Below are positions 916 to 18,471 of a stretch of 32,000 nt of DNA, piece after piece. A program made the translations under genes and the position numbers. The notes under the pieces were generated by a model that saw only the letters and a list, made by a program, of their open reading frames with translations, was not told where the DNA came from and did no database searches. Numbering within the stretch: position 1 is the stretch's first letter; the number at the start of each line of letters is the position of its first letter. This DNA comes from Bdellovibrionales bacterium (GTDB lineage Bacteria; Bdellovibrionota; Bdellovibrionia; Bdellovibrionales; UBA1609): the NCBI GenBank assembly GCA_963692945.1, contig OY843585.1, positions 960,001-992,000 on the forward strand, written 5' to 3'.

Positions 916-1797
916 ATGTTATTAGATCAACAAGATGATTTTTTTAGAGATCTTTTATTTAACAAACAATATTCTGAAAACACTATCGCTGCTTATAGGA
1001 GAGACTTATTTATTTATCAAGAATTTTGTAAAACAAAAAAGCAAATTTCAGAATTTTATCAATATCTTACAAAAAAAAATTTAAGTCCAAAATCTCAAGT
1101 TCGTATTATTAGTTGTCTAAGAATGTATTTTAAATATTTACAAAGTTGTGGAATATCTACACCTGATATAAATATTTTAAAATTTCCTAAGTTAAAAAAG
1201 AAGTTACCAAAAATTATCAGTATCAAAGAATTTAAAGCTTTATTAGAGGCTTCTAGAGAGAAAGATAAAGTTTTAACCATTCGCAATCATCTTGTATTAA
1301 GTTTTTTATATGGTTTAGGTTGTAGAGTGAGTGAATTGGTTCATTTGGATTTAGAGGATTTTAATGCTACAGAATCTTGGGTGAATATAACAGGAAAAGG
1401 GAATAGACAAAGATTGTTACCTCTATCTAAAGACCTCTATGAACTTTTAAATTTTTATTTAAAAGAATCTCGTCCGTTGGTTGTTAAGACAGAAATGCAG
1501 GCTTTGCTTTTTAATAATAAAGGAAATCGTCCTTCCCGTATAGATATTTGGAGATGGCTTAAAAAATGGTCTCAACAAGCAGGTTTTGATGATGTTAAAA
1601 ATCCCCATTCTTTTCGTCATGGATGTGCTACGGGATTGTTAGAACGAGGGGCTGATTTGAGGAGTATACAAAAACTACTAGGTCATCTCAATATTCAAAC
1701 AACTCAAATTTACACTTCTGTTACTTCTAAGCATTTGAAAGAAACTGTTGATAGATGTCATCCATTCTCTCAATCTGAAACTTCAGTTGAAGATTGA
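916..1797 (+). CDS. xerD: Tyrosine site-specific recombinase, XerD-like
   Basis: Length is 293 aa. The N-terminal motif YSENTIAAYRRDL is typical of XerC/D. The C-terminal catalytic region is HSFRHGCATGLLERGADLRSIQKLLGH...TTQIYTSV (H-x-x-R, H and the Tyr nucleophile). Confidence 0.85.
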   Translation: MLLDQQDDFFRDLLFNKQYSENTIAAYRRDLFIYQEFCKTKKQISEFYQYLTKKNLSPKSQVRIISCLRMYFKYLQSCGISTPDINILKFPKLKKKLPKIISIKEFKALLEASREKDKVLTIRNHLVLSFLYGLGCRVSELVHLDLEDFNATESWVNITGKGNRQRLLPLSKDLYELLNFYLKESRPLVVKTEMQALLFNNKGNRPSRIDIWRWLKKWSQQAGFDDVKNPHSFRHGCATGLLERGADLRSIQKLLGHLNIQTTQIYTSVTSKHLKETVDRCHPFSQSETSVED

Positions 1798-4462: not shown

Positions 4463-4623
4463 AAGAATAAATACAAAACTCTAGTTCAAAAGAACCCATT
4501 ATGTATTAGACTGAAAAATCTAAGTTTATTTTTACAGATTAAAAATGGAAAAAGAAGACAGTACTGTTTCATAAAATTCTATAAAATAAATAAACTCTTT
4601 TTGTTTTAATTTGAGGAAAGAAT

Positions 4624-6729
4624 TTATTCAAAAACAATTCTATCCAATAGGTCTATTTTTTTATCAGTAAATATTATATTTTTAGCTGGAAGTTTTTTTG
4701 AATAAATTCTTTGTTTTGTATCTTTTTTTATTATAACAATTTTCTTTCCTTTTTCAAGATGAGGAAGAGCTACAACAATAGGATAAGTGATTAACTCTTC
4801 TGTAGTGGATTGTTTGTTAAAAGAATCAATAAATTCAATACTTACTTTTGTAGAAATTTCTATAGAATAAAGTATTTTGGAAAAATTATCTAAAATTTGT
4901 ATTTCTAAATCTCCATTAGGATTTGAAGGAGTTAAAATCCCCTCTGCAACATATTCTAGCTCTGGTTCTATAAAATTTTGTTTGCTATATAGACTAGAAA
5001 AAATAATAATTTCTGGATCCTGCATGGGATCAGTTAAAGTTTTTAAAGATTTACTGTAAGTATCTCTATCTATCCATTGCTGAGAGATGTTTGAAGAATT
5101 TCCCATGATACTTACTGATTTTTTCACAAAACTCCAATTTGAATAATCCTTCCATTTTAGAGAACCATGAAATCCCTCAAATTTATTAAAACGAAAACAA
5201 TAATCTGTTTTTTGATGGAATTTACAAATATCATTGACTGATAGTTGTTTAAAACTTTTTTGATAAAATTCTTTTAACTGACCTAAAAGATGTCCCAGTT
5301 CGTGTAGAATTGTTCCCTTACCAGCTTGATCTATCCTTATAAAGCCTACATTTTCTGTTGTGGCTGGTGATTTTGTAAATATAACAAAACCTCCAACATT
5401 TTCTTTGTTTATTTGTTTGAAGTAATCTTTGGAAGCCACTGCAAATAACTTACTGAGTTGTTGTTTAATTCTTAATTTTTTAAGTGCCATTAAATCTTTT
5501 AAAATATATTTTGTTTGATCTGTATCAGACTCTTTTAAAGTTATAATTTTATCTTTAGATTCAATGAATGCAGCATCTCTTTTACTATCTTCAATTTTAG
5601 AGCTCTGTTTTGTTTTCATAGATTGATTTAAAAAAATCCATTGAGGAACATTATCTCCTTTATCAGGAACAGGAAAAATCTTCTTTAATAAATTAAAATC
5701 TAAAAGAGAGTCATTTATAAATGACTTCCAAAAGGGAGTGGAAAAAGAAAGGGCTTGTTCCATTAAAACAAATCCTATTTGTAATTTTCTTGTTTTATGA
5801 ATATTAAGAGTCAATGAAGTATTTAAACGGTCATTGAAACAGTTTTTATCATTTTTTAATCCAAAAGATATTTTAAAAAATCCTTCTTTGTTTAAAACTT
5901 CACCTTGATTCATAGGAAATATAACAATTTGTTTTAAAATATCTTTTTCATTGAAGTCATTTAAAGTGAAATGACAGTTTATTGGGGTTTTTTTAATCTC
6001 ATCAAAACATTTAGGTTTATAAGTTTTTTGATTGATAGTTATTGTTGGCTCTAAAACTTTATCAGAAAATACATTTTCTCTTTTTTTATAAGAAAGAACC
6101 ATAACAGCTGGTTTATCTTTTGTTAAATCAAAAGATTTGGAGTTGTTTTCTAAATCTATCTTTGGAGAAGGAACAACTTGATAAATCTCATAATCCACTA
6201 TTTCAAATAATAATTTATTAATTTTTGTCGTTATAGAAAGGTTTTGATTATTTGAAAAGAAAGAGTCATTCATAGAAAATAAAATATTTTTTGCTTTGGA
6301 AGGTATTTTAATATTGGTGCATTTTTTAGAATCCACTGGAAAATCAAAAGGGATGTCTGTTGGAAGTTTTGAAAATTTTGTTTTAAAACTAATTGGACTT
6401 TTCAAAACTTCATCTTCTAAAGGAATGAAATTTCCAAATTCATCTGTAAATACTCCTAATAGTTTATTTATTTGATTGTTACTAGAAGAAAATCCTATTT
6501 CTAAAACATCACTTTTTGCTGCTTTTATATCTTCCAAAGAAATAGAAGTTGGTTTTTCAGTTTGTTTGTCATGGAAATAATCTACAAATAAATAAGTTCC
6601 ATTTGGTTTAATATTTGTTGTTAACGCTAAAAGAGGGTTTGAAAAAAATAAAAATATCAAACTGCCAAGTAAAATCATATTTTTGAAAAAAGGGGTTTTA
6701 TATTCTTTTAATCTTTTTTGTAAAAACAT
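4624..6729 (-). CDS. Secreted HExxH zinc-metalloprotease-like protein (paralog A, 701 aa)
   Basis: RBS AGGAGG lies 9 nt upstream of the start, and there is an N-terminal signal peptide. The HELGHLLGQLKEFY motif is encoded at 5290-5304 (HELGH), followed by SIMG and WIDRDTY. The protein is alignable along most of its length with the 7562-10330 product. Confidence 0.8.
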   Translation of the reverse strand: MFLQKRLKEYKTPFFKNMILLGSLIFLFFSNPLLALTTNIKPNGTYLFVDYFHDKQTEKPTSISLEDIKAAKSDVLEIGFSSSNNQINKLLGVFTDEFGNFIPLEDEVLKSPISFKTKFSKLPTDIPFDFPVDSKKCTNIKIPSKAKNILFSMNDSFFSNNQNLSITTKINKLLFEIVDYEIYQVVPSPKIDLENNSKSFDLTKDKPAVMVLSYKKRENVFSDKVLEPTITINQKTYKPKCFDEIKKTPINCHFTLNDFNEKDILKQIVIFPMNQGEVLNKEGFFKISFGLKNDKNCFNDRLNTSLTLNIHKTRKLQIGFVLMEQALSFSTPFWKSFINDSLLDFNLLKKIFPVPDKGDNVPQWIFLNQSMKTKQSSKIEDSKRDAAFIESKDKIITLKESDTDQTKYILKDLMALKKLRIKQQLSKLFAVASKDYFKQINKENVGGFVIFTKSPATTENVGFIRIDQAGKGTILHELGHLLGQLKEFYQKSFKQLSVNDICKFHQKTDYCFRFNKFEGFHGSLKWKDYSNWSFVKKSVSIMGNSSNISQQWIDRDTYSKSLKTLTDPMQDPEIIIFSSLYSKQNFIEPELEYVAEGILTPSNPNGDLEIQILDNFSKILYSIEISTKVSIEFIDSFNKQSTTEELITYPIVVALPHLEKGKKIVIIKKDTKQRIYSKKLPAKNIIFTDKKIDLLDRIVFE

Positions 6730-6765
6730 AGTAAAAGCCTCCTGCTTTCTTTACATACAAAATCT

Positions 6766-7158
6766 TTAGTTTAAATTCTCTAGATAAGGCTTAACTTTTA
6801 AATCATTTTGACAGTTTTTATTAAAAAAAGACTGCCAAGTATGACGGATAATCTGCTCTGAATTTTTGGATTGCATTTCTATTTGTTTTACAATGCTTTC
6901 ATTTTTTTTAAGACATTCTTGAGAGTGAGTCTTAGTTTTTTTAAATTCTAAAGTACATTTAAAAGTCCAATAAACACGATTGCAATCCTTATTTGAAAAA
7001 TGGTTTTCAAATGGTGAATTTTCTGGCTTTCTATCTTTTGGCACATTATCTATAGTTTCAAATTTCCCCCCATCTATCTCTTCACTTTTATCTGAGTCTT
7101 TTGAAGAGCTACAACTTAAGATATTTATTATAAATAAAACTAAAAAAATATATTTCAT
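6766..7158 (-). CDS. Small hypothetical lipoprotein (130 aa), co-oriented just upstream of paralog A
   Basis: I prefer the internal ATG at 7158, because it gives MKYIFLVLFIINILSCSSSKD (signal peptide plus lipobox). The longer ORF from 7281 only adds a non-signal extension. The mature part has 4 further Cys. A 36 nt gap separates it from the next gene. Confidence 0.65.
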   Translation of the reverse strand: MKYIFLVLFIINILSCSSSKDSDKSEEIDGGKFETIDNVPKDRKPENSPFENHFSNKDCNRVYWTFKCTLEFKKTKTHSQECLKKNESIVKQIEMQSKNSEQIIRHTWQSFFNKNCQNDLKVKPYLENLN

Positions 7159-7447
7159 AGAAATTCTTATTCTACACAATGATATTAAACTGTCTAGCTT
7201 TTCATTTTTAAAAAAATAAAATCTGTTAAATCTTAAAATTTGCTCGTAAAAAAATAAATTAGAATTATTTAAATTAAACATTCTTTATAAAAAAGTTTTT
7301 TTCATCTCACGAAAAATGTCTCAAAATGAAACTATTTTTTATTCTAGACTAAAGCTTAGTACTTATTTTTCAGATCATTTTTTCGTAAAAAAACTCTTTG
7401 TTTATAGGTTTTTTAAAAGAATATCTAATTTTTCATAAATATTTTTG

Positions 7448-7478
7448 TTTTATTTTGAGATATTTTTTCAAAATAAAA
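7448..7478. promoter_or_regulatory. AT-rich inverted repeat in the divergent intergenic region; possible operator
   Basis: TTTTATTTTGA (7448-7458) and TCAAAATAAAA (7468-7478) are perfect reverse complements with a 9-nt loop. The repeat lies about 85 nt upstream of the 7562 start. Confidence 0.25.
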
Positions 7479-7561
7479 TAAAAAACAATTTTATTTTTAA
7501 AAAAATTATGATTGAATTATTTCTTGTGTAAAATTTCATAAATAAACAAGGAGGTTTAAAA

Positions 7562-10330
7562 ATGAATTTTTTTAAAAAATATGGTCGGATTGTTTTATGC
7601 AATCTTTTTTTGATTTTCTGTGTAAGTATTGCTCAGTCCCAACAATCACTTTTTCAAATGTTTTCTGTAAAAGTGAATCCTAGAGGGACTTATTTAAGAA
7701 CAGATCGTGATGATATCACTCGTATATATAATAACCAAGGAAGAGTGACTAGAACTTTTCGGCCTCTAGGGGCATCTTCTTTTTCTTTAAGTAGTCGCTC
7801 CATTATGCCAGGGGATTTTTTGCAACTTATGTCAAAAGGAGAGTTTGTTTTTGTAAGAAATGATAATTCTTCAATAAGCCGAGGTATGTTAGGAGTTTTT
7901 GTAGATTCAGATAGAAGTTTTTTAAATCCAGGGGAAGATAGTGATGAAAATATAGGAACCATATCTCTTCCTAGTTTCAATAGTGGTCGTTCTACGGATA
8001 TTCCTCAAGATTTTTATATTCCATACAATAGTGATCAATGTGTTACTGTTCAAGTCCCTGAAAATGCTTCCAGAATCTTATTTAGTGCTAATGATGCTTT
8101 TTTTTCAGATAACCATGATCCAGACGGAGATTTTAAAGCAGATATCTACATAAATAAATTAGATGTGGGTGTGGCTTATGCCAATCCTATGCAATCCATA
8201 TTTGCACCACAATTAAATGCCTCACAAGGTTATTATGAATGGCCTTATGATTTAGTGGCAAAAAAAGCTGCTTTTGTACAAGCAGGGTTTGATAAACTTT
8301 CTTCCAATATAGATAGTAGTATGACTTTCAATCCTGTTTTGAAAATTGACGATCAAGTTTATACGGATACAAAATGTATTATTAATAAAATTGAGAGTAG
8401 CTGTTCTTTTAGAGCTTCTGATTTTGGAGATGAGGAACAAATTTATAGAGTGTTTGTTATCCCTGAACTTACTTCCGGAAGACATAAAGTAGAAGTTACT
8501 TTATATCCTGAGATTCCTTCTGTTTTTTCTTCCTGTTTTGAGGACAGTGAAATGCATTTTAAAAGTTTTGAAGTTCTAGTTCATGACATTCAAGCTCCAC
8601 GAATTGCTATAGCAAAAACTCAGTGTATGGAAGATGCAGATAAACCAGATGCAAGTAAGACATGCAGTTTAAATAATGCAGATTACAATAAATTTACTAA
8701 CAGTAGAAGAAACTTAGAAATTAATTTATTTTCAGCAATGTTTCCTGTTCCTGATAAAGAGCAAATATTTTTTAAGTTGACCCATACGTCACTTTTTGAC
8801 CGAATAAATGATTTTTTTAATGCTATTTCAAAACATCTGAACACTCAAACAAACGATGAAGACAGTTTAAGCAGATCGATACGTTTAGCATTGAATATAA
8901 ATGGACTTAATCTAAGAAGAATACTATCTCGTGTTGATTATATAGTAGCTATTGCAACACCAATTTTTTTTACTGATGTTCTTGGACATACAGATGCTGT
9001 AGGTCTTTATTATGATGATGAGACTTCTAAAGTATCTAAAGTTGGTCTTGTTAGATCCGATCAATTAAATACAGGAACTATGCTTCATGAACTGGGGCAT
9101 GTTTTAGGACAAGGCAAAGATTTTTATGATGGTAGTGCCAGTAAATGCACAAAACATGATCTAAAAATAGCAATGAATGATAGGGAAGAACTACTTTGCA
9201 AAGATCTTAAACCTTTTGAAGGTTATAATTCCTTAGCTAAAGAGTATGTCTATGAAGAAAACAGCATTATGGGAGCTGCCTTAATTGATGAAGAAAATCA
9301 AGTTAGAGATCTATGGATAGATAGAGATACCTATATCACTGCTTTTAACACCTTAAAAAATCCAGCTCTTGATCCAGAATTAACTATTGTTTCTGGTATT
9401 TATGCAGGAGGAAGACTCTTTAACGGAAGAGTTAACAACTATGGAGCAGGATTGCTTGAACTTCTTTCTACACAAGGAGATTTGAGAGTGATGTTAAAGG
9501 ATGCTCAAAATAATATTCTTTCAGAAGCTAGGGCTTCCTCAACAGGTCAAGTGGAGATATTAAGAGCTGGAGGTGGGGAATCTATGGATCTTTCTGTTGT
9601 TCCTGTTATGGTGGTTTTGCCTTATCAAGCAAGAGCCAGCCAAGCTGTAATTATGAAAATGGAAGCAAATGGAAGTGAGACAATGATTTTTTCTAAAACT
9701 CTTCGTCCAGAAACAAGTGCCAGAAATACCTTGCTCTCAAGTCATAATCTTTTTTCTACAGAAAAACCTCTTCCTAAACTTCAAAAACCCCCAGGAGTTA
9801 ATCTATTGGAAAAATCAGCTGTGAATGGAACATCTATTACTTTTTCTAAATTTATCTATAATCCAGCCATTCGTATAGAGTTCAATTACAGTGCTTGTAA
9901 AAGTAAACCCGATGCAGGAGATGGTTTGTCTCTTGTTTTTGGGAAAAACCCAGAAGATTATTCGGTTTCTCTTCCAAGAGGTAATCAAGGAGTTTTGTTT
10001 AATGGGGAAGGCTTTTCTCTTCATTTGGATATAAAAGCAGGTCGTCTAGTTTTAAAAGACGGAAATGGAAAAGTCCTTAAACGTGTTACTCATCAAGTGG
10101 CTACAGGTTGTAGTGAATTTCAAAAGTTAAAAATTAGGATAAATGAAGATGGAACATTTCATCTTCTTCAAGGAAAAGATATCCTTTTGACTTACCAATT
10201 AACATCTGAACAAAGAGTAGCTATAGAGTCACAAGCTATTGGTTGGAGTGCTCACTCTTCAAATAATGGTCAGTATAGAGTAAAAGGTATTAAAATAGAT
10301 AGTATTCCCTTTCCAAGAGATGAGGAGTAA
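7562..10330 (+). CDS. Secreted HExxH zinc-metalloprotease-like protein with a C-terminal L-type-lectin/ConA-like domain (paralog B, 922 aa)
   Basis: A strong RBS, AAGGAGG, precedes the start, and there is a signal peptide (...CVSIAQSQ). HELGHVLGQGKDFYDG is present, with HELGH encoded at 9086-9100, followed by SIMG and WIDRDTY. The C-terminal ~190 aa carry the lectin-like motifs GDGLSLVFG, GFSLHLD and IGWSAHSS. Confidence 0.85.
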   Translation: MNFFKKYGRIVLCNLFLIFCVSIAQSQQSLFQMFSVKVNPRGTYLRTDRDDITRIYNNQGRVTRTFRPLGASSFSLSSRSIMPGDFLQLMSKGEFVFVRNDNSSISRGMLGVFVDSDRSFLNPGEDSDENIGTISLPSFNSGRSTDIPQDFYIPYNSDQCVTVQVPENASRILFSANDAFFSDNHDPDGDFKADIYINKLDVGVAYANPMQSIFAPQLNASQGYYEWPYDLVAKKAAFVQAGFDKLSSNIDSSMTFNPVLKIDDQVYTDTKCIINKIESSCSFRASDFGDEEQIYRVFVIPELTSGRHKVEVTLYPEIPSVFSSCFEDSEMHFKSFEVLVHDIQAPRIAIAKTQCMEDADKPDASKTCSLNNADYNKFTNSRRNLEINLFSAMFPVPDKEQIFFKLTHTSLFDRINDFFNAISKHLNTQTNDEDSLSRSIRLALNINGLNLRRILSRVDYIVAIATPIFFTDVLGHTDAVGLYYDDETSKVSKVGLVRSDQLNTGTMLHELGHVLGQGKDFYDGSASKCTKHDLKIAMNDREELLCKDLKPFEGYNSLAKEYVYEENSIMGAALIDEENQVRDLWIDRDTYITAFNTLKNPALDPELTIVSGIYAGGRLFNGRVNNYGAGLLELLSTQGDLRVMLKDAQNNILSEARASSTGQVEILRAGGGESMDLSVVPVMVVLPYQARASQAVIMKMEANGSETMIFSKTLRPETSARNTLLSSHNLFSTEKPLPKLQKPPGVNLLEKSAVNGTSITFSKFIYNPAIRIEFNYSACKSKPDAGDGLSLVFGKNPEDYSVSLPRGNQGVLFNGEGFSLHLDIKAGRLVLKDGNGKVLKRVTHQVATGCSEFQKLKIRINEDGTFHLLQGKDILLTYQLTSEQRVAIESQAIGWSAHSSNNGQYRVKGIKIDSIPFPRDEE

Positions 10331-10378
10331 AGTAGAATAAAGAAATAGATTTTTTAACTCAAAAAAAAAGGAGAGAAT

Positions 10379-11197
10379 TTGATAAATGCATCTAAAGTTA
10401 TCACTCTCTCCTTTTTGATTCTTTTTGGAGTTGAAGCTTTTTGTTGTAGGATAACAGTTACTGTTATGCAACGAGCTGTTTTTGCTAAGGGATCTTCTGA
10501 ATCAGAAAGAGCAAAAAGTTCTATTGAAAATATAAAAAAACTTCTTAAAAAAGGAATAGATATAAATTCACAAGATAATTATGGAAAAAGAACAGCTCTT
10601 CATATGACTGTAGCTACAAACAGCAAAAAACTAAAAGAACTAAAATTTTTACTAAATAAAGGAGCCAATGCAAATATACGAGATCATTATGATGCCACCC
10701 CTCTTCATCTGGCTGTAGCTTATAAGAATATGAAAAGACTTTCTACTCTTGTGCCACATACTTATACAAAACATATTAAAACAGCTTTATCTTTTGCAAA
10801 AGAGCAAAAAACTTTATTAAAATCTATGGGTTTAAAAAGATTTAAGTTGAAATATCGAACCAGATGTAGACGGAAAGTGGTTCCTTTTAATAGATCAGAC
10901 TCTCAATATAATCAAAAAATCAAAGAAGAATTAAAAAAGAAACTGGAATCTCTTGGTATAAAAGACATAGAAGTTAAGTATAAACCATATGGAGTATTTT
11001 CATCTATAGTTTATGACTCTATTATGGATCGCCAGGGAATGTATAAAATAGATGACAAAGAATTAAAAAAGAAAAGAGAGGGTTACATCAAGAAATTTGA
11101 TGAAATCATTAAAATCTTATCGGATGAGATAGTTTATAGAGAAAAGCTAAAAAAGGAAAAGACCAAAAAAGAAGAACAAAAAAAAGAAAGAAACTAA
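10379..11197 (+). CDS. Exported ankyrin-repeat protein with a Lys-rich C-terminal half
   Basis: A TTG start lies 5 nt after AAGGAG. The N-terminus is hydrophobic. ANK repeats are visible (GKRTALHMTVATNS...LLNKGANANIRDHYDATPLHLAVAYKN). Confidence 0.75.
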   Translation: MINASKVITLSFLILFGVEAFCCRITVTVMQRAVFAKGSSESERAKSSIENIKKLLKKGIDINSQDNYGKRTALHMTVATNSKKLKELKFLLNKGANANIRDHYDATPLHLAVAYKNMKRLSTLVPHTYTKHIKTALSFAKEQKTLLKSMGLKRFKLKYRTRCRRKVVPFNRSDSQYNQKIKEELKKKLESLGIKDIEVKYKPYGVFSSIVYDSIMDRQGMYKIDDKELKKKREGYIKKFDEIIKILSDEIVYREKLKKEKTKKEEQKKERN

Positions 11198-11353
11198 AAA
11201 ATAAAAATATCAAACTAATTCATCTTAAGCCTTTAAGTAGCAAAGAAGCTATTTCATCAATTAGAGTGTGGAATTTTTCTTTTTTGCATAATTTTAAATT
11301 TTCCTAAATAAACAACTAAAGTTTTTTTGATATTTTTCCGATATATTATTTTA

Positions 11354-11512
11354 ATGTCCTTTAAAAGTCTTTTTCTTCTTCTTTTATTTTCCCCTATTTT
11401 AAGTTTTTCTGAAAATCTTGTGATGTTCCCTGAAAGCTATAATTTTATAAAAGAAAAAGCTTACTCAAAAAAAGATAAAGAATATCTTTTTGAAATGGGA
11501 AAAATATTATGA
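11354..11512 (+). CDS. Possible small exported peptide (52 aa)
   Basis: An ATG at 11354 gives MSFKSLFLLLLFSPILSFSEN, which is signal-like. Its stop overlaps the next gene's ATG (ATGA at 11509-11512). No homology is recognised. The ORF track's TTG at 11327 is an alternative start. Confidence 0.3.
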   Translation: MSFKSLFLLLLFSPILSFSENLVMFPESYNFIKEKAYSKKDKEYLFEMGKIL

Positions 11513-12099
11513 AATATATTTTATTTGTTGCTTTACTTTTTCAACTCTCTTGTAAAAAGAATCAAGGGATAAATGATGAGTCAGAAGAAATCCGAAGATA
11601 CATTGAAGCCAATAGACTTTTTAAAACCATAGAAGAAGCTCAAAAACACCTTGAAGCCAATAGAAAGTATGAAATGGTTAAAGGTTGCAAGGTGATAGAA
11701 CGAACTCGCATTATTGAATCTGGTATATTTATTGCCATAGATCCAGTAGGTGAGCTATTAGAAACAAACAGAGTATACTTAACAATACTTGATGATCTTG
11801 TAAGATCTGTTGTGTTTGGAGACACAAAAGCTGTAAAATGTCTTCTAGATAAAGATCATGACCCTAATTCAAGAAGTAATACATTTGGAGCAGCAAAACT
11901 ACACTCAGCTCTTTTTTGGGCTATTGTTCAAAATTTTCCTAAAATCGTAAAACTTCTGATAGAAGCAGGAGCCGATGTGAACGAAAAAAATGAAGACGGA
12001 GTCCCTTTTCTTTTAGAAGAAGCAGAATTCTTAAAACATACAGAAGTGGCTAAAATCCTTAAAGCTCACGGAGCCAAAGCAAGAAAACCAATTCGTTAA
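11509..12099 (+). CDS. Ankyrin-repeat protein, probable lipoprotein
   Basis: MKYILFVALLFQLSCKKN is a signal peptide with a probable lipobox. The C-terminal ANK repeats read LHSALFWAIVQNFPKIVKLLIEAGADVNEKNEDGVPFL...HTEVAKILKAHGA. Confidence 0.8.
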   Translation: MKYILFVALLFQLSCKKNQGINDESEEIRRYIEANRLFKTIEEAQKHLEANRKYEMVKGCKVIERTRIIESGIFIAIDPVGELLETNRVYLTILDDLVRSVVFGDTKAVKCLLDKDHDPNSRSNTFGAAKLHSALFWAIVQNFPKIVKLLIEAGADVNEKNEDGVPFLLEEAEFLKHTEVAKILKAHGAKARKPIR

Positions 12100-12140
12100 A
12101 TAATTTGTTTAATTGATTTATGGAATCATTTTAACAAAAA

Positions 12141-12237
12141 TGGTGGAGGGAGTGATTTGCCTACTACATTCGTTCGCATCCAGCTCACTCATTGCGTAGG
12201 CTCACCTCAGTCACTAAGAAAAACATCCTGTTTTTCT
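12141..12237. repeat. Repeat A, copy 1: a diverged tRNA-3'-end-like segment fused to a conserved 81-nt sequence ending in a hairpin
   Basis: 12157-12237 matches 12653-12733 at 80/81 positions. 12141-12156 is a diverged version of the tRNA 3' end (minus-strand reading ...CTCCCTCCACCA). The hairpin GAAAAACA-TCC-TGTTTTTC lies at 12218-12236. Confidence 0.85.
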
Positions 12238-12461
12238 CTGGTTCAAACATAAGCTGTTAGTAAGATGCAAAAAACAGTAGTTTTTCTTTAGTTCAAACAT
12301 AAGTCTATTAAGCAACTCTTATTTTAACGAGATTTGAAGATCTTATCCATAAGCGAAAAACAGCAGTTTTTCTCTAGTTCAAACATAAGTCTATTAAGCA
12401 ACTCTTATTTTAACGAGATTTGAAGATCTTATCCATAAGCGAAAACCAGCAGTTTTTCTCT
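12238..12461. repeat. Repeat B: tandem units, each ending in a GAAAAAC-N4-GTTTTTC hairpin
   Basis: There is one short diverged unit (12238-12289). Two 86-nt units follow, at 12290-12375 and 12376-12461, and they match at 85/86 positions. Hairpins lie at about 12270-12285, 12355-12372 and 12441-12458. Confidence 0.9.
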
Positions 12462-12468
12462 ATGAATA

Positions 12469-12534
12469 CCTTTCTTATTTTCTGAACTTGAAGAGTGTCC
12501 CCTTTTACGATGAAAGGTCAGAAAATAAGAAAGG
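12469..12534. repeat. Perfect 17-bp inverted repeat with a 32-nt loop
   Basis: CCTTTCTTATTTTCTGA (12469-12485) is the reverse complement of TCAGAAAATAAGAAAGG (12518-12534). Confidence 0.85.
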
Positions 12535-12634
12535 ATACACTAGAGTTTTGTAAAAGAGTGTCCCTTTTACGATGAAAAGCTCGTTAGAATAAGAGTAAGA
12601 AAATATCTAAGTAACTGAACTAGAGTTTTGTAAA
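12492..12634. repeat. Repeat C: two direct units bounded by AGAGTGTCCC(C)TTTTACGATGAAA and CTAGAGTTTTGTAAA
   Basis: The units are 12492-12554 and 12555-12634. The second contains an inverted, diverged copy of part of repeat B (CTCGTTAGAATAAGAGT versus the reverse complement of B, CTCGTTAAAATAAGAGT). Confidence 0.75.
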
Positions 12635-12733
12635 TGGTAGCGAGGGATGGACTTGCCTACTATATTCGTTCGCATCCAGCTCACTCATTGCGTAGGCTCA
12701 CCTCAGTCACTAAGAAAAACATCCTGTTTTTCT
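12635..12733. repeat. Repeat A, copy 2: a displaced tRNA 3'-end copy (att-like) fused to the conserved 81-nt sequence
   Basis: 12635-12655 matches the tRNA gene's 3'-terminal 21 nt (13079-13099) at 20/21 positions. Identity stops inside the T-loop. The 81-nt sequence shared with copy 1 follows. A hairpin lies at 12714-12732. Confidence 0.85.
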
Positions 12734-12748
12734 TCCCTGCATCACTTG

Positions 12749-12949
12749 CTCCTAAAGTCGCAAGTGATTTGCTTCTAAAGTCGCAAGTGATTTGCTCCTA
12801 AAGTCGCAAGTGATTTGCTCCTAAAGTCGCAAGTGATTTGCTCCTAAAGTCGCAAGTGATTTGCTCCTAAAGTCGCAAGTGATTTGCTCCTAAAGTCGCA
12901 AGTGATTTGCTCCTAAAGTCGCAAGTGATTTGCTCCTAAAGTCGCAAGT
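12749..12949. repeat. Tandem array of a 23-bp unit, CTCCTAAAGTCGCAAGTGATTTG, in about 8.7 copies
   Basis: There are 8 full units plus a 17-nt partial unit, head to tail with no spacers. The only substitution is in unit 2, at 12774. Stop codons occur in all six frames. ATCACTTGC at 12741-12749 is an inverted copy of GCAAGTGAT at 12760-12768. Confidence 0.95.
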
Positions 12950-13012
12950 AACACAGGTCGTTCCTTCGTTTCAAGTCCTACAACCTCTACCTATTTAAAG
13001 CAGTAATAAATT

Positions 13013-13037
13013 AAAAAAATAGAAAGCTTTCGCTTCC
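13013..13037 (-). terminator. Probable intrinsic terminator downstream of the tRNA
   Basis: The minus strand reads GGAAGC-GAAA-GCTTTC, a 6-bp stem including one G-U pair and a GNRA loop, followed by TATTTTTTT. Confidence 0.45.
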
Positions 13038-13078
13038 CCTTTTTTTAATTTAGTAAATATTTGTTTTTCCGTTTAAAA

Positions 13079-13155
13079 TGGTAGCGAGGGAGGGACTTGA
13101 ACCCCCGACAAATGGATTATGATTCCACTGCTCTAACCACCTGAGCTACCCCGCC
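13079..13155 (-). tRNA. tRNA with a CAT anticodon; elongator tRNA-Met or lysidine-modified tRNA-Ile2, which cannot be distinguished by eye
   Basis: The 77-nt minus-strand sequence is GGCGGGGTAGCTCAGGTGGTTAGAGCAGTGGAATCATAATCCATTTGTCGGGGGTTCAAGTCCCTCCCTCGCTACCA. It folds as a cloverleaf with a 7-bp acceptor stem (G1-U72 and G5-U68 wobbles), a D arm GCTC/GAGC, an anticodon loop ATCATAA and a T arm GGGGG-TTCAAGT-CCCTC. The CCA end is encoded. It lacks initiator features. Confidence 0.9.
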
Positions 13156-13258
13156 TATGCTTTTTTCTTAACAAATTTTAAATCAAAAAGCCATATTTAA
13201 AAATAGAATAAAAGTTGTATTTTTTTTAAAATATCTTGTAGAATGATTTTAATCACTT

Positions 13259-13717
13259 ATGGTTACTACTATTAAAAATACATTTTTACTTGCTTTTTTT
13301 CTTTGCTGTAGCGCTGCCTGTGTGCATGTTTCTAAATCTGGTAATGTAAAACTTTATCCATCTTCTCGTGAAAAAACTTGGAAGGCTTTGATTTATATTT
13401 TTAAGTCTTATCCTATTAAAACTATTGATATAGAAAAAGGTTATATTGAAACCAAAGTTTTAAAAGGTTCAAAATATTGGACAGCCCCTCATCAAAAAAA
13501 TATAAATACTAATGGGTTAAGTGCCGTTATTAAAGCCTATTTATTTTATGACAAACCTTATTCTAAAGTAGAAATTCGGAAAACTATTTTTAAACAATCT
13601 ACTTTTTTTTCTGATCCTGAAATCGTAGATTCAGATTTTTTAGAAGAAAAAAACATACTCTATCGTCTTAAAAGAGAACTCTTTATCAGAAAGGTTTTTG
13701 ACAAAATTTCCAATTAG
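13259..13717 (+). CDS. Hypothetical lipoprotein (152 aa)
   Basis: The N-terminus is MVTTIKNTFLLAFFLCCSAAC (signal peptide with lipobox-like Cys). No family motif is recognised. Confidence 0.65.
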   Translation: MVTTIKNTFLLAFFLCCSAACVHVSKSGNVKLYPSSREKTWKALIYIFKSYPIKTIDIEKGYIETKVLKGSKYWTAPHQKNINTNGLSAVIKAYLFYDKPYSKVEIRKTIFKQSTFFSDPEIVDSDFLEEKNILYRLKRELFIRKVFDKISN

Positions 13718-13841
13718 CTAAGGCTAACTCTTATTTTAAAAAATAAACTCCTATAGATTAATATTTTCAACTAATGTCTTGAAAAATAAGCTTATAAGAA
13801 GTAAATAAGATGCACTAAAAGAAGTTGAGAAGGGTTTAATA

Positions 13842-15002
13842 GTGTCATTTACATTTAATACAGTTACAGAAATTATTCATGCTTTAAAATCAGGTCAATT
13901 TGTTATTCTTGTTGATGATGAAAATAGAGAAAATGAAGGAGACTTAATTATAGCTTCTGATTTCATAACTCCTGAAGCTGTTAATTTTATGGCTAAAGAA
14001 GCAAGAGGTTTAATTTGTGTTTCTTTAGATACAGAGCAGGTGAAAAGATTAGATCTTCCTCTCATGGTTAAAAGTGAGGATAATGTTTCTCCTCATAGAA
14101 CGGCTTTTACTGTTAGTGTAGAGGCTTCCAAAGGGGTTTCTACTGGTATTTCTGCTAAAGATAGAGCTCAGACTATCAAGGTGGTTTCCGACCCCAAATC
14201 TCAAAAAGAAGATATCATTAGTCCCGGTCATATTTTTCCCATACAAGCTCAAAAAGGGGGAGTTTTAAAAAGAGCAGGTCATACGGAAGCAAGTGTGGAT
14301 TTTTGTAAATTGGCCAATTTAAATCCTTCTGCTGTGATTTGTGAAGTTGTGAATATGGACGGAACCATGTCTAGAGCCCCTGAACTCTTTAAATTTGCTA
14401 AAAAACATCAAATTAAAATAGGGACTATTGAAGATTTGATTAAATATAGAATGGCTCACGATTCTTTAGTTGAAGAAAGAGTTCAAACTTCTTATCAAAC
14501 GGGTTTGGGGAAAGATTGGACAGCTCATGTTTTTTATGACGAGATCAATGATAGAGAGCATCTTGCTCTTACAAAAGGAAAAATCAATCCTCAAAAATCT
14601 GTTCTTGTTAGAGTTCAGACTTCTTGTATAACAGGTGATCTTTTTCAAGATGAATTTTTATCTACAGGTTCCTATATAAGAAAGTCTCTAGATTATATCA
14701 ACGAAGAGGGAACAGGTGTTTTTGTCTATCTTAGAATGCAAAATACGATTTCAAAGTATTTGGATTATCATAAATTACAAAAAGAAAAATTTGATTCAAA
14801 AAGAATTTTTAAATCAGATAGTAAAGATTATGGAATAGGAGCTCAGATTTTAAGAGCTCTTCATATTTCTAAAATTCGGCTTATTACTAATTCAAAAAGT
14901 AAAAAAATTGGTCTTAAAGGGTATGGGTTAACAATTGAAGAGACGGTTCCTATTATTGAAGATGAACATGGCTTTCAATTTATTTCTAAAGATTCTAAAT
15001 AA
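13842..15002 (+). CDS. ribB: 3,4-dihydroxy-2-butanone-4-phosphate synthase fused to a degenerate GTP-cyclohydrolase-II-like domain (RibBX-type rather than a true RibBA)
   Basis: The gene uses a GTG start. The N-terminal DHBPS motifs DDENRENEGDLI and GHTEASVD are intact. The C-terminal domain aligns to RibA but lacks the RCDCG zinc Cys pair (LSTG here) and the QEGRGIG motif. Confidence 0.85.
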   Translation: MSFTFNTVTEIIHALKSGQFVILVDDENRENEGDLIIASDFITPEAVNFMAKEARGLICVSLDTEQVKRLDLPLMVKSEDNVSPHRTAFTVSVEASKGVSTGISAKDRAQTIKVVSDPKSQKEDIISPGHIFPIQAQKGGVLKRAGHTEASVDFCKLANLNPSAVICEVVNMDGTMSRAPELFKFAKKHQIKIGTIEDLIKYRMAHDSLVEERVQTSYQTGLGKDWTAHVFYDEINDREHLALTKGKINPQKSVLVRVQTSCITGDLFQDEFLSTGSYIRKSLDYINEEGTGVFVYLRMQNTISKYLDYHKLQKEKFDSKRIFKSDSKDYGIGAQILRALHISKIRLITNSKSKKIGLKGYGLTIEETVPIIEDEHGFQFISKDSK

Positions 15003-15004
15003 TA

Positions 15005-15424
15005 ATGAGTAAAAAAATAGCTATAATTTGTTCACAGTTTAATAAAGATCTTGTGGAATCTTTATATAAAGACGCCTCTGCAGAATTGATGCATTCTATA
15101 AAGAAAGTGCAATTGGATGTTTATTGGGTGCCAGGGGCTGGAGAAATTCCTCTTTTTACAAAATGGATTATAGAGCAGAAAAAGTATGATGGTCTGCTCA
15201 CTTTAGGAGTTATTATTCGTGGAGAAACCACTCATTATGATTCTTTATGCCGAATTTTAGAAAAATCTTTGTGGGATTTACAAAAAAAGTATTCATTGCC
15301 TGTCATTTTTTCTATTCTTACAGTAGAAAATAGAGATCAAGCCTTGTATAGAATTCAAAAAGGACGAGGAAAAGAACATGCTAAAACATTATCTCAAATG
15401 ATAAAACTTAAGGAGCATCTTTAA
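15005..15424 (+). CDS. ribH: 6,7-dimethyl-8-ribityllumazine synthase
   Basis: The motifs IAIICSQFNKDL, VPGAGEIP, LGVIIRGETTHYD and PVIFSILT follow the RibH pattern. Length is 139 aa. Confidence 0.85.
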   Translation: MSKKIAIICSQFNKDLVESLYKDASAELMHSIKKVQLDVYWVPGAGEIPLFTKWIIEQKKYDGLLTLGVIIRGETTHYDSLCRILEKSLWDLQKKYSLPVIFSILTVENRDQALYRIQKGRGKEHAKTLSQMIKLKEHL

Positions 15425-17154
15425 TGAAATGGAGTGAGTTGTATTTAAAGACTTTAAAAGAAAAGCCTTCAGGAATTTCTATGTCCAGTCATGCTCTTCT
15501 TATTCGGTCTGGCTATATTTATAGTACCAGTCAAGGAAGTTTCACTTACAATACTTTTTTTTTAAGAGCCATTCAAAAATTTGAAAAAATAATAAGAGAA
15601 GAATTGGAAAAGCAAGGGGCTAGAGAGATTCTTATGCCTATGGTTCAACCTAAAAAATTATGGAAAGAGACAGGTCGTTGGAATAAATTTGAAGGCTTGC
15701 TTCAAAAAATGAAAAACAGATCGGATCAAGATTTTTGTTTAGGTCCCACTCATGAAGAAGTGATTACAGATTTTGTAAGGTCATCCTTGATAAGTTATAA
15801 AGAAATGCCTTTCAATCTTTATCAAATACAAATTAAATATCGGGATGAAATACGTCCAAGATTTGGACTTATGAGAGCAAGAGAATTCATTATGAAAGAT
15901 GCTTATAGTTTTGATAGAACAAAAGAAGAATCAAATCTTAGTTATCAAAAAATGTTTCAAGCTTATACAAACATTTTTAATCGGTTAGGGGTTAAGTTTG
16001 TTGTTGTTCAAGCAGATACAGGTTCTATTGGTGGAGATAAATCAGAAGAATTTCATGTTTTAGCTGATAAGGGTGAAGATGTGTTGTTTATTTCTGATAA
16101 AAGTGATTTTGCAGCCAATCGTGAAATTTGCCCTTCTGTTTTAAAAACAAACGAAGAGGTGCAGCAGCAAGAGCAAAAAACAGTTGAAAAATTTGCAACT
16201 CCAAATATTTTAACCATTTCTTCTTTAGCAAAATTTTTAAAGTGTAAAGAAAAAGACCTTGTTAAGATACTGTTTTTTATTTTTTCTAAAAGTTCTTCTT
16301 CAGAAAAAGAATGTGTAGCCGTTTTATGTCAAGGGGATGATGAGATCAATCCTATTAAACTTAAGAGAGAATTTTCTCTTTTTGAAACTCCTTATTTAGC
16401 AGATGATAAAGTCATTCAAGATATCACAGGAGCTTTACCGGGAAGTTGCGGTCCTTATAAATTAAAAAAAGAAACATCTATTTATGTAGATCATAGATTA
16501 AAAGGAAAAAGTAATTTTATCACAGGAGCTAATGAAGATGGATTTCATTTTAAAAATGTGAATCTGGAAAGAGATTTTAAAGTTTGTCAGTATGGAGATT
16601 TTTGTTATGCCAAAGAAGGAAGCACTAGTCCTGATGGGAAAGGCACTCTTAAGATGTATAGAGGTATTGAAGTGGGACATCTTTTCTATCTTTCTGATAC
16701 TTATTCTAAAAAAATGAATCTGACTTATTTAGATCAACAAGGAAAAAAACAATATATTGAGATGGGTTGTTATGGATTAGGAGTTACTAGAACTCTTCAA
16801 GCTCTTGTAGAGCAAATTCATGATGAAGATGGAATGATATGGCCAATGGCTGTAGCTCCTTTTTATGTTCATATTTGCCTTATTGATGAATCTAGTCCTA
16901 TAGTTTTAAAATCTTTAGAAGAAATTCTTAAACTTTTAAAAGAACAAAATTTAGATTATTTTATTGATGATCGTAAAGAGCGAGCTGGCATCAAATTTAA
17001 AGATGCTGATCTTTTAGGTCTTCCTATTCGTTTAAGCTTAGGAGAAAGAGATTTAAAAGAATTAAAAATAGAATTTTATATTAGAAAAACAAAATACAAA
17101 GAAAAAATAAAAATTAAAAGCTTAAAAGAAAAACTTTTACAAAATTTATCGTGA
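15424..17154 (+). CDS. proS: Prolyl-tRNA synthetase, bacterial type with an insertion (editing) domain
   Basis: The N-terminus L.TLKE.P......SH.LL.R.G.I, together with MPMVQPKKLWKETGRW, matches bacterial ProRS. Length is 576 aa. The start overlaps the ribH stop (TAATG). Confidence 0.9.
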   Translation: MKWSELYLKTLKEKPSGISMSSHALLIRSGYIYSTSQGSFTYNTFFLRAIQKFEKIIREELEKQGAREILMPMVQPKKLWKETGRWNKFEGLLQKMKNRSDQDFCLGPTHEEVITDFVRSSLISYKEMPFNLYQIQIKYRDEIRPRFGLMRAREFIMKDAYSFDRTKEESNLSYQKMFQAYTNIFNRLGVKFVVVQADTGSIGGDKSEEFHVLADKGEDVLFISDKSDFAANREICPSVLKTNEEVQQQEQKTVEKFATPNILTISSLAKFLKCKEKDLVKILFFIFSKSSSSEKECVAVLCQGDDEINPIKLKREFSLFETPYLADDKVIQDITGALPGSCGPYKLKKETSIYVDHRLKGKSNFITGANEDGFHFKNVNLERDFKVCQYGDFCYAKEGSTSPDGKGTLKMYRGIEVGHLFYLSDTYSKKMNLTYLDQQGKKQYIEMGCYGLGVTRTLQALVEQIHDEDGMIWPMAVAPFYVHICLIDESSPIVLKSLEEILKLLKEQNLDYFIDDRKERAGIKFKDADLLGLPIRLSLGERDLKELKIEFYIRKTKYKEKIKIKSLKEKLLQNLS

Positions 17155-18471
17155 TGAATTTTTAGGCAAAACATGAAAACCAATAGGGATGCCTTTTAAA
17201 TTCCAATTTTGTTTGATTTGATGAATTACAAAGCGGCGATAAGACGGTGTAACGCCTTTAGGGTAATTGGCAAAAGCAATAAAATCAGGAGGGGTTTTGT
17301 GAGTTTGAGTGATATAATAAAAATTGACATTACTTGTTCCATAAACAGGGGAAGGGGCTTTTCGTATTGTTTTAGTAAAAAAACGATTTAATTTGGAGGT
17401 TGGAATTTTTACATTCATTTTATTTTTTATATCCGTAATAACATTAAACAGTTTTTCTTTATGATAAGCCGTCTTAGCACTTATAAAAACAACAGGTAGA
17501 TCAGAGCAAAAATGGAAAGTTCTTTTGAGTTCTTCTTTTTTTTGTTTTCTTTCTTGTGGATCTCTTTTTTTAACAAGATCCATTTTATTAACTACAAGGA
17601 TAACAGGTTTTCTTTTTTCAAGACACAATTGAACAAAGCGAGTGTCTTGTCGGCTTGCTCCTACGGTTCCGTCTATAACAAGAAGAACAATATCAGATTT
17701 ATCTATTGCAGAAAGACTTTTAGAAAAAGAAATTTTTTCTCTCTCTTCTCTGTTTCCTCTTCGTGAACCTGGATTATCAGAGATAGAATATTCTTCTTTA
17801 TTTTTTGAAAAGAATTCTGTCACTGTGTCTAAAGTTGTTCCTGCTTTAGAGCTAACAATCATTCGTTCTGTATTAAGAATTTGATTGCAAAGCAAACTTT
17901 TTCCACTATTGGCTTTTCCAATAACAAAGAGGGAAGTGATGTTCAAGGAATCTTTTTTGGTTATTTCAGAATTAGAAAATTTCTTTTTTTGTAAAATAAT
18001 CCATTCTATCACTTCATTTACACCAAAATTTTGTTCTACGGATCCAGAAAGTATTTCTGTAGATAAATTAAAAAAATCGGATGCAAAGAGATTTGTGTTT
18101 TTAGGGTTATCTATTTTATTTACAAACACAGTAAAAGGTTTCCCTGTTTTTCTTATCATTTCTATGACTCGAGTGTCTTCTGGGTGAACACCAACCTTTC
18201 CATCTGTGACAATAATAAATACATTAGCTTTTTTCATTGCCATTTCAATTTGTTGTTGAATTTTTAAATAGAGTTCACTTTTTTCTTGTTGTTCAGGAAG
18301 GCCTCCTGAATCCATAATTTCAAATGCATGCCCCCACCACTTTACAGGTTCTTTTAATACATCTCTTGTAATGCCTGATTCATCAAATACCAAAGATTTT
18401 CTTTTTTTTGCAATTCTATTAAAAAGAGAGGATTTACCTACATTTGTTCGTCCTACGATAAGAGCTTTCAT
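17146..18471 (-). CDS. der: Ribosome-associated GTPase Der/EngA (two GTPase domains plus a KH-like C-terminus)
   Basis: There are two P-loops, GRTNVGKSSLFNR and GKANSGKSLLCNQ. NKID and NKMD are the G4 motifs. Length is 441 aa. Confidence 0.9.
   Translation of the reverse strand: MKALIVGRTNVGKSSLFNRIAKKRKSLVFDESGITRDVLKEPVKWWGHAFEIMDSGGLPEQQEKSELYLKIQQQIEMAMKKANVFIIVTDGKVGVHPEDTRVIEMIRKTGKPFTVFVNKIDNPKNTNLFASDFFNLSTEILSGSVEQNFGVNEVIEWIILQKKKFSNSEITKKDSLNITSLFVIGKANSGKSLLCNQILNTERMIVSSKAGTTLDTVTEFFSKNKEEYSISDNPGSRRGNREEREKISFSKSLSAIDKSDIVLLVIDGTVGASRQDTRFVQLCLEKRKPVILVVNKMDLVKKRDPQERKQKKEELKRTFHFCSDLPVVFISAKTAYHKEKLFNVITDIKNKMNVKIPTSKLNRFFTKTIRKAPSPVYGTSNVNFYYITQTHKTPPDFIAFANYPKGVTPSYRRFVIHQIKQNWNLKGIPIGFHVLPKNSSR

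Follow-up and report, generated by a model that had tools for sequence, protein, structure and literature searches.

The window, by which we mean the whole 32-kb stretch of DNA analysed here, comes from a Bdellovibrionales bacterium and carries a tRNA(CAU) gene that ARAGORN and Rfam both call as a single tRNA on the minus strand, in agreement with a preliminary description made from the sequence alone (Table 1). ARAGORN calls the tRNA Met, a call that covers elongator Met or Ile2. Core genes lie to its right (a 152-aa ORF, ribBA, ribH, proS and der). To its left are two non-coding modules, A and B, each ending in a displaced copy of the tRNA 3' end, and beyond them an outer insert with cargo genes, followed on the far side of its 701-aa ORF by gltA, a PEP-mutase-family gene, a YceD-family gene and xerD.

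Table 1. Features in and around the tRNA(CAU) locus, in window coordinates
Feature	Position	Strand	Description
xerD	916-1797		core recombinase gene
Source-specific insert	4463-13078		8.6 kb, abuts tRNA 3' end
Outer insert	4463-12140		two HExxH paralogs, 171-aa ORF (-), two ankyrin genes
17-nt inverted repeat, left arm	4472-4488		perfect
HExxH paralog, 701 aa	4624-6729	-	
HExxH paralog, 922 aa	7562-10330	+	
Ankyrin gene	10379-11197	+	
Ankyrin gene	11509-12099	+	
Displaced copy 2 of tRNA 3' end	12141-12159	-	degraded
Module B	12160-12634	-	non-coding
Module B, 78-nt arm	12160-12237		
Module B, tandem repeat	12270-12462		86 nt x 2.2, with hairpin variants
Module B, two diverged 63/80-nt units			each terminating in ACTAGAGTTTTGTAAA
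17-nt inverted repeat, right arm	12616-12632		2 nt outside displaced copy 1
Displaced copy 1 of tRNA 3' end	12635-12655	-	T-loop C56 to CCA, 20/21 identical, attR-type core
Module A	12656-13078	-	non-coding
Module A, 78-nt arm	12656-12733		
Module A, palindrome			GAAAAACATCCTGTTTTTC, between 23-nt array and arm
Module A, tandem array	12746-12949		23 nt x 8.9
Module A, conserved block	~12950-12996		
Inverted fragment like tRNA 3' end	12966-12996	+	within conserved block; TTCAAGTCC...CTACC
Module A, terminator-like hairpin	13021-13038		
tRNA(CAU)	13079-13155	-	anticodon CAT; 3' end faces left

Displaced copies of the tRNA 3' end share one arm

The recurrence of the last 21 nt of the tRNA at copy 1, with a single mismatch, had been reported and is secure, two matches to this query being found in 0/100 shuffles. 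Copy 2, previously placed at 12141-12156 and here extended to 12159, departs from the tRNA by 2 single-base deletions and 2 substitutions; its score of 11, taken alone, falls inside the shuffle range and is not significant, and the copy is credible only because it stands in register with copy 1 (17/22 columns, 2 gaps). Both copies lie on the minus strand, and the insert is thus bounded by an intact tRNA and same-orientation displaced fragments. No third att copy was found at the gltA boundary, and no further one in the outer part of the insert.

On its tRNA-proximal side each displaced copy is fused to the same sequence, the arm. The preliminary description had given this shared sequence as 81 nt with 80 matches; the sequence itself stands, but the ungapped identity runs for 78 nt (77/78), after which the two copies differ by a 3-nt indel. 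Within the modules the two arms terminate at an identical base, and, read together with most of the adjoining cores, they form a 92-nt direct repeat (12146-12237 vs 12642-12733, 96% identical). Like the 21-nt repeat, the arm goes beyond what chance would give. The G+C content of the arm, 44-46% against 31% in the window, bears out the earlier estimate of about 44%, above the surroundings.

Resemblance to the tRNA starts sharply inside the T-loop, between T55 and C56. When the arm is compared with the tRNA body in register, 16/56 positions match, a figure equalled by 887/2000 shuffles; the arm shows no relationship to the tRNA body, and the junction is therefore of the recombination type and not a decayed tRNA duplicate. 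A whole-tRNA pseudogene was rejected on the same random-level match. These attR-type junctions, with their sharp T-loop start, have the geometry of successive integrations that had been proposed for the locus. At the same time, the outer core is more diverged than its own arm (4/21 vs 1/78, Fisher p = 0.007), a gap that simple in-place decay does not explain. The 10-mer GCAAATCACT is common to the copy-2 junction and every 23-nt unit of module A.

Modules A and B are gene-less and lack an integrase

The modules had been described as elements of about 0.42 and 0.49 kb with no ORF of at least 60 aa and no integrase, and all three statements hold: they measure 423 bp (A) and 475 bp (B), the longest ORF within 12100-13078 is 55 aa, and no integrase or integrase remnant was found in that interval, tblastn with the recombinases of two related loci described below (the L088 integrase and the L087 recombinase) matching only XerD. 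The tRNA 3' end and copy 1 flank module A, and copy 1 and the degraded copy 2 flank module B; each is thus an att-flanked unit without integration or transfer genes, its ORFs no longer than 55 aa, as the definition of a CIME demands. The sole sequence common to the two is an arm-plus-core block of ~102 nt. The interiors of the modules were not found to resemble one another, nor were the three distal flanks, and no residual homology was found between the flanks and the spacers of relatives.

Both the 23-nt array (98% matches) and the 86-nt array are near-perfect, and the first 23-nt unit forms a 9-bp palindrome, ATCACTTGC..GCAAGTGAT. Against Rfam 15 only the tRNA passes, the modules being without a match at either the gathering or the E-value threshold, and an attC-like or other stable fold was rejected since only an AT-rich hairpin is robust. 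We do not rely on the inverted tRNA-end-like fragment in the conserved block, a block that is also conserved in the family members P0250 and P0252 described below: with 8 occurrences of the T-loop motif in the window, the fragment could be chance. The 17-nt inverted repeat reaches a score seen in 0/300 shuffles, and its arms bracket 8.1 kb comprising the cargo and module B. If joined, they would form a hairpin 2 nt beyond copy 1, followed by a T-rich run; they may be the separated halves of an ancestral terminator of the tRNA, or else terminal inverted repeats.

The modules form the tip of an 8.6-kb island

Homology to relatives (blastn; RibBA 79-88% identical) stops at ~4453 and resumes exactly at 13079, and the DNA between is specific to the source genome. 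The two small elements of the preliminary description are therefore real, but the inserted DNA is far larger, and the modules are just its tRNA-proximal tip, with the cargo lying outside them. The empty site that the same description had proposed to look for is seen in relatives, which lack the insert. In L001, L002 and L006, gltA is followed by a short spacer (~150-175 bp in L001 and L002) and the tRNA; in L003-L005, polA directly adjoins the tRNA(CAU), its stop codon 1 nt from the tRNA 3' end (~9314-9392). The tRNA sequence itself is the same or almost the same in L001, L002, L003 and L006. With gltA as neighbour in some relatives and polA in others, the tRNA(CAU) gene marks a synteny breakpoint across the lineage. 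The L001 contig (JARPSI010153342.1) belongs to an assembly of >150,000 contigs (GCA_029782575.1), which suggests a bacterium sequenced with its eukaryotic host and fits a gene content that includes ankyrin and Sel1 genes. A RibBA-guided scan of a genome collection returned almost exclusively distant taxa.

No recombinase ORF or remnant was found in 4463-13078, and the island thus has no integrase gene of its own of the kind that Islander expects in each island of an array. The only recombinase in the window is XerD, which is syntenic in relatives and is a core gene rather than an island integrase. Searches of phage and plasmid sequences by blastn gave no match.

The two HExxH paralogs are 26% identical (E = 4e-52), and an HELxH motif is invariant across 8 homologs; by this motif, the 701-aa and 922-aa proteins may be zinc proteases. 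Neither matches a Pfam, NCBIfam or PHROG family. In 5.8 billion proteins there are only about 8 homologs, and those with visible context adjoin ankyrin genes in mobile DNA.

Cargo homologs lie in mobile DNA of relatives

The few homologs of the 922-aa protein are 36-46% identical to it. In locus L088, such a homolog and an ankyrin gene are bounded by a tRNA-Leu(TAG) gene and by 18 nt that repeat the 3' end of this tRNA; next to the tRNA is a 150-aa C-terminal fragment of an integrase, and next to the displaced copy a further remnant (51 nt, 96% identical to the 3' end of the same integrase). L088 is a stacked pair of decaying, truncated tyrosine-integrase elements, and the stacking envisaged for the window is thus seen in a cargo-bearing relative, among tRNA-targeting elements whose integrases are decaying. 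L087 has a duplicated cargo, adjacent to a tRNA-Arg and a truncated serine recombinase. The duplication is a 3.84-kb tandem repeat (9951-17557) of the protease-like and ankyrin gene pair, with stretches 100% identical, and the tRNA-Arg is overlapped by a recombinase ORF without its catalytic N-terminal domain. In L089 the cargo lies near TrbC and TraG. A metagenome scan guided by the cargo protein confirmed nothing.

Clusters of AAAATC(A/C)C occur in the arms that flank the att cores of relatives' tyrosine-integrase elements (L088, 9517-9695 and 15299-15501; L090, 10760-10968), and this motif is probably an arm-type binding site. A 25-nt likeness between the tRNA-adjacent flank of the window and an L088 arm is borderline and AT-rich, and we have not used it as evidence.

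Other members of the arm family

A phmmer search with a 43-aa spurious ORF that crosses the arm matched two proteins, P0250 (E = 1e-12) and P0252 (E = 5e-4), both of which are read here from protein sequence and not from DNA. P0250 is encoded on a 1,561,448-bp contig in sequence that differs from the window's, and is taken to be another locus of the source genome. It contains two tandem units, each collinear with window positions 12626-12768 and 12930-12995 (tblastn) and each running through TTTTGTAAA, core, arm, one 23-nt unit and the conserved block; the units are read in different frames, and the unit length is therefore ~186 nt. The two cores are not alike, and neither is the same as the tRNA(CAU) end; to judge from the translated sequence, they appear to come from tRNAs of more than one kind, an outcome not expected of attR junctions in their simple form.

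P0252 lies on a 1,003,754-bp contig of another assembly, and its reading rests on back-translation. A displaced core is followed by a homolog of the arm (17/27 residues) and then by ~114 nt that include the conserved block and a T-run hairpin. It ends, on this protein-level reading, in the antisense translation of a tRNA-Gln-like gene whose 3' end matches the displaced core, with the junction at the same T-loop position as in the window. The order of parts in module A is thus seen again in both P0250 and P0252. Each of these appears to have about one 23-nt unit, and by this comparison the array in module A would be a local expansion.

Beyond these matches, searches of genome, metagenome and viral collections for exact words of 21-24 nt from the arm and the 23-nt unit gave nothing, a viral collection scanned with a degenerate peptide pattern likewise contained no arm, and nhmmer found no copy in 1.49 Mb of related loci. 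The copy of the arm beside an integrase, for which the preliminary description had suggested a search, did not emerge: neither the collections nor the related loci yielded an integrase-linked or full-size element with the 78-nt arm. As to a scattered REP or MITE sequence, which would occur in many copies away from tRNA genes, the arm has 2 copies in the window and 0 in the 1.49 Mb, and the other detected members of its family have tRNA-end cores.

Discussion

Overall, we believe that the anatomy of the locus, the sharp junction, the empty site of relatives, the other family members and the stacking with integrase decay in a relative are best explained by serial site-specific integration, in which members of a family of miniature, integrase-less (CIME-like) elements inserted at the edge of an older cargo island, a reading to which we give somewhat better than even credence. 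The 3' side of the tRNA(CAU) gene, as the integration target, would be a recombination hot spot, and the island would have been built by successive site-specific insertions, with crossover in the T-loop between T55 and C56 and a tyrosine recombinase as the putative maker of the junctions. A T-stem/T-loop crossover reportedly figures in the sublocation classes of tRNA integration attributed to Williams in 2002. Every insertion would restore the tRNA 3' end and push the earlier 3' end outward, which would make the displaced ends attR-type junctions and the 78 nt the element-side arm, and would make the more distal insertion the earlier event.

The inserted units would belong to a small non-coding family, ~0.19-0.24 kb long without satellite expansion and so roughly the size of a bare attP, in which the tRNA is followed by terminator, conserved block, 23-nt unit or units, palindrome, 78-nt arm and displaced tRNA end. 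Since the units encode no recombinase, they would have been moved by an integrase encoded elsewhere or since lost, in the manner of CIMEs or other non-autonomous elements. The protease-like and ankyrin cargo would be an older layer of the same island, its recombinase gone. Of the two options raised by the preliminary description, heavily decayed islands or integrase-less modules, the modules fit better, given the recurrence in P0250 and P0252. Against serial integration of such units speak the failure of all these searches to find an integrase-linked copy of the arm or an integrase in the window other than XerD, the restriction of module similarity to the ~102-nt block with identically ending arms, the high divergence of the outer core and the mixed tRNA origin that the P0250 cores appear to have.

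A rather different history would lead to a similar picture if two full-size integrative elements (prophages or islands with integrases) had arrived in succession and random deletions had left only 0.42 and 0.49 kb of them, with the 78 nt as a surviving distal end that was never part of a small element. A genome as small as 1.56 Mb, with gene content that looks host-associated, would suit such losses, and integrase decay with stacking is on record in relatives: in addition to L088, locus L090 has an rve transposase gene directly upstream of a 240-aa integrase ORF, and the L088 integrase family comprises 143 homologs of just 82-263 aa each, with several in a genome (of the best 120 of the 143, none is assigned to the source genome). 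Random deletion, however, is expected to leave idiosyncratic remnants, whereas module A, the P0250 units and P0252 have the same order and similar length, and the arms of both modules finish at one and the same base. The same minimal architecture at several loci and tRNAs thus argues against random deletion remnants and favours a discrete ~0.2-kb unit, and we consider plain decay possible but unlikely.

The two junctions might also descend from a single real integration, one attR junction having been copied locally by unequal crossing-over, slippage or gene conversion. Tandem repeats are many here (23 nt x 8.9, 86 nt x 2.2 and the 63/80-nt units), P0250 has the look of a single unit genuinely duplicated in tandem, and the near-identity of the arms would fit a recent copy or gene conversion. 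Nonetheless, the copies stand 496 bp apart, and the DNA between and beyond them is unrelated, so that this is not a simple tandem duplication; the core, moreover, is strongly diverged beside a near-identical arm, and we hold such local copying to be quite unlikely. Very improbable, finally, is that the ~100-190-nt unit is a functional non-coding RNA or protein-binding cassette (for instance a small RNA whose 3' end resembles that of a tRNA, or sites of the iteron or operator type maintained by selection behind tRNA genes) and not the scar of a mobile element, for although fold energies lie below those of shuffles (z -2.2 to -3.0), the arm is conserved where its neighbours are not, both modules contain palindromes (GAAAAAC-N5-GTTTTTC; ATCACTTGC..GCAAGTGAT) and the shared 10-mer recurs, the unit matches no Rfam family, its sole stable feature is the AT-rich hairpin (MFE structure frequency 0.003-0.004), no convincing promoter was found, and covariation is uninformative with two near-identical DNA copies.

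Serial integration, the reading we prefer, has clear counterparts among known systems. In the islands found by Islander, a regenerated tRNA and same-orientation displaced 3' fragments mark the ends of elements, and older elements are pushed outward (PMC4383910). The identity block from T-loop to CCA, the displaced fragments and the empty site in relatives are all alike; however, Islander needs an integrase gene per island, and the units here, which have none, measure 0.2-0.5 kb where islands span several kb or more, with the cargo outside the att-flanked units. CIMEs, known from the ICEs and IMEs of Streptococcus, are att-flanked, lack integration and transfer genes and stand in tandem with other elements at target-gene 3' ends (PMC5704250). 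The att-flanked, gene-less units described here share that tandem arrangement. CIMEs span several kb and have known ICEs as their source, whereas the present units are attP-sized and non-coding, and a parent ICE was not found.

Tycheposons of Prochlorococcus likewise form tRNA-seeded islands, one of three Met-CAU tRNAs being among their targets, in which successive integrations are separated by partial tRNAs and leave degenerate remnants and cargo behind (bioRxiv 10.1101/2020.12.28.424599). The seeding at a tRNA, the partial tRNAs between integrations, the remnants and the leftover cargo are all alike here, but the hallmark genes are absent, the lineage is another one (Oligoflexia/Bdellovibrionota-like), and the miniature unit is conserved. 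MITEs, integron cassettes and IMEX resemble the units in concept only, as short, gene-less, multi-copy arrayed units that need a recombinase in trans: unlike MITEs, the units here have neither terminal inverted repeats nor short target duplications, and unlike integron cassettes and IMEX they have no attC-like fold and target a tRNA T-loop instead of dif or attI.

Displaced tRNA ends behind tRNA genes are a textbook footprint of integration, and in this respect the basic finding is ordinary. What is unusual is a conserved, gene-less, attP-sized unit found repeatedly, both in arrays and at separate loci (a second one in the source genome and one behind a tRNA-Gln-like gene in another genome), and situated at the growing edge of an island with effector-like genes (HExxH protease-like and ankyrin-repeat proteins). 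A bolder proposal, and in our estimation a rather unlikely one, is that the ~0.2-kb unit is in itself an entire integrative element, non-autonomous and in essence a bare attP, which consists of two arms and a terminator for the restored tRNA, spreading among the T-loops of different tRNAs (CAU, Gln and others) by means of a recombinase in trans, and so seeding and extending islands in reduced, host-associated Oligoflexia-like genomes. If that were true, the unit would correspond to a MITE that depends on a tyrosine recombinase. Such units would escape tools that detect islands by their integrase gene. If they do move by a recombinase supplied in trans, the units would illustrate a way for tRNA-linked islands to go on growing in small symbiont genomes whose own integrases have been lost.
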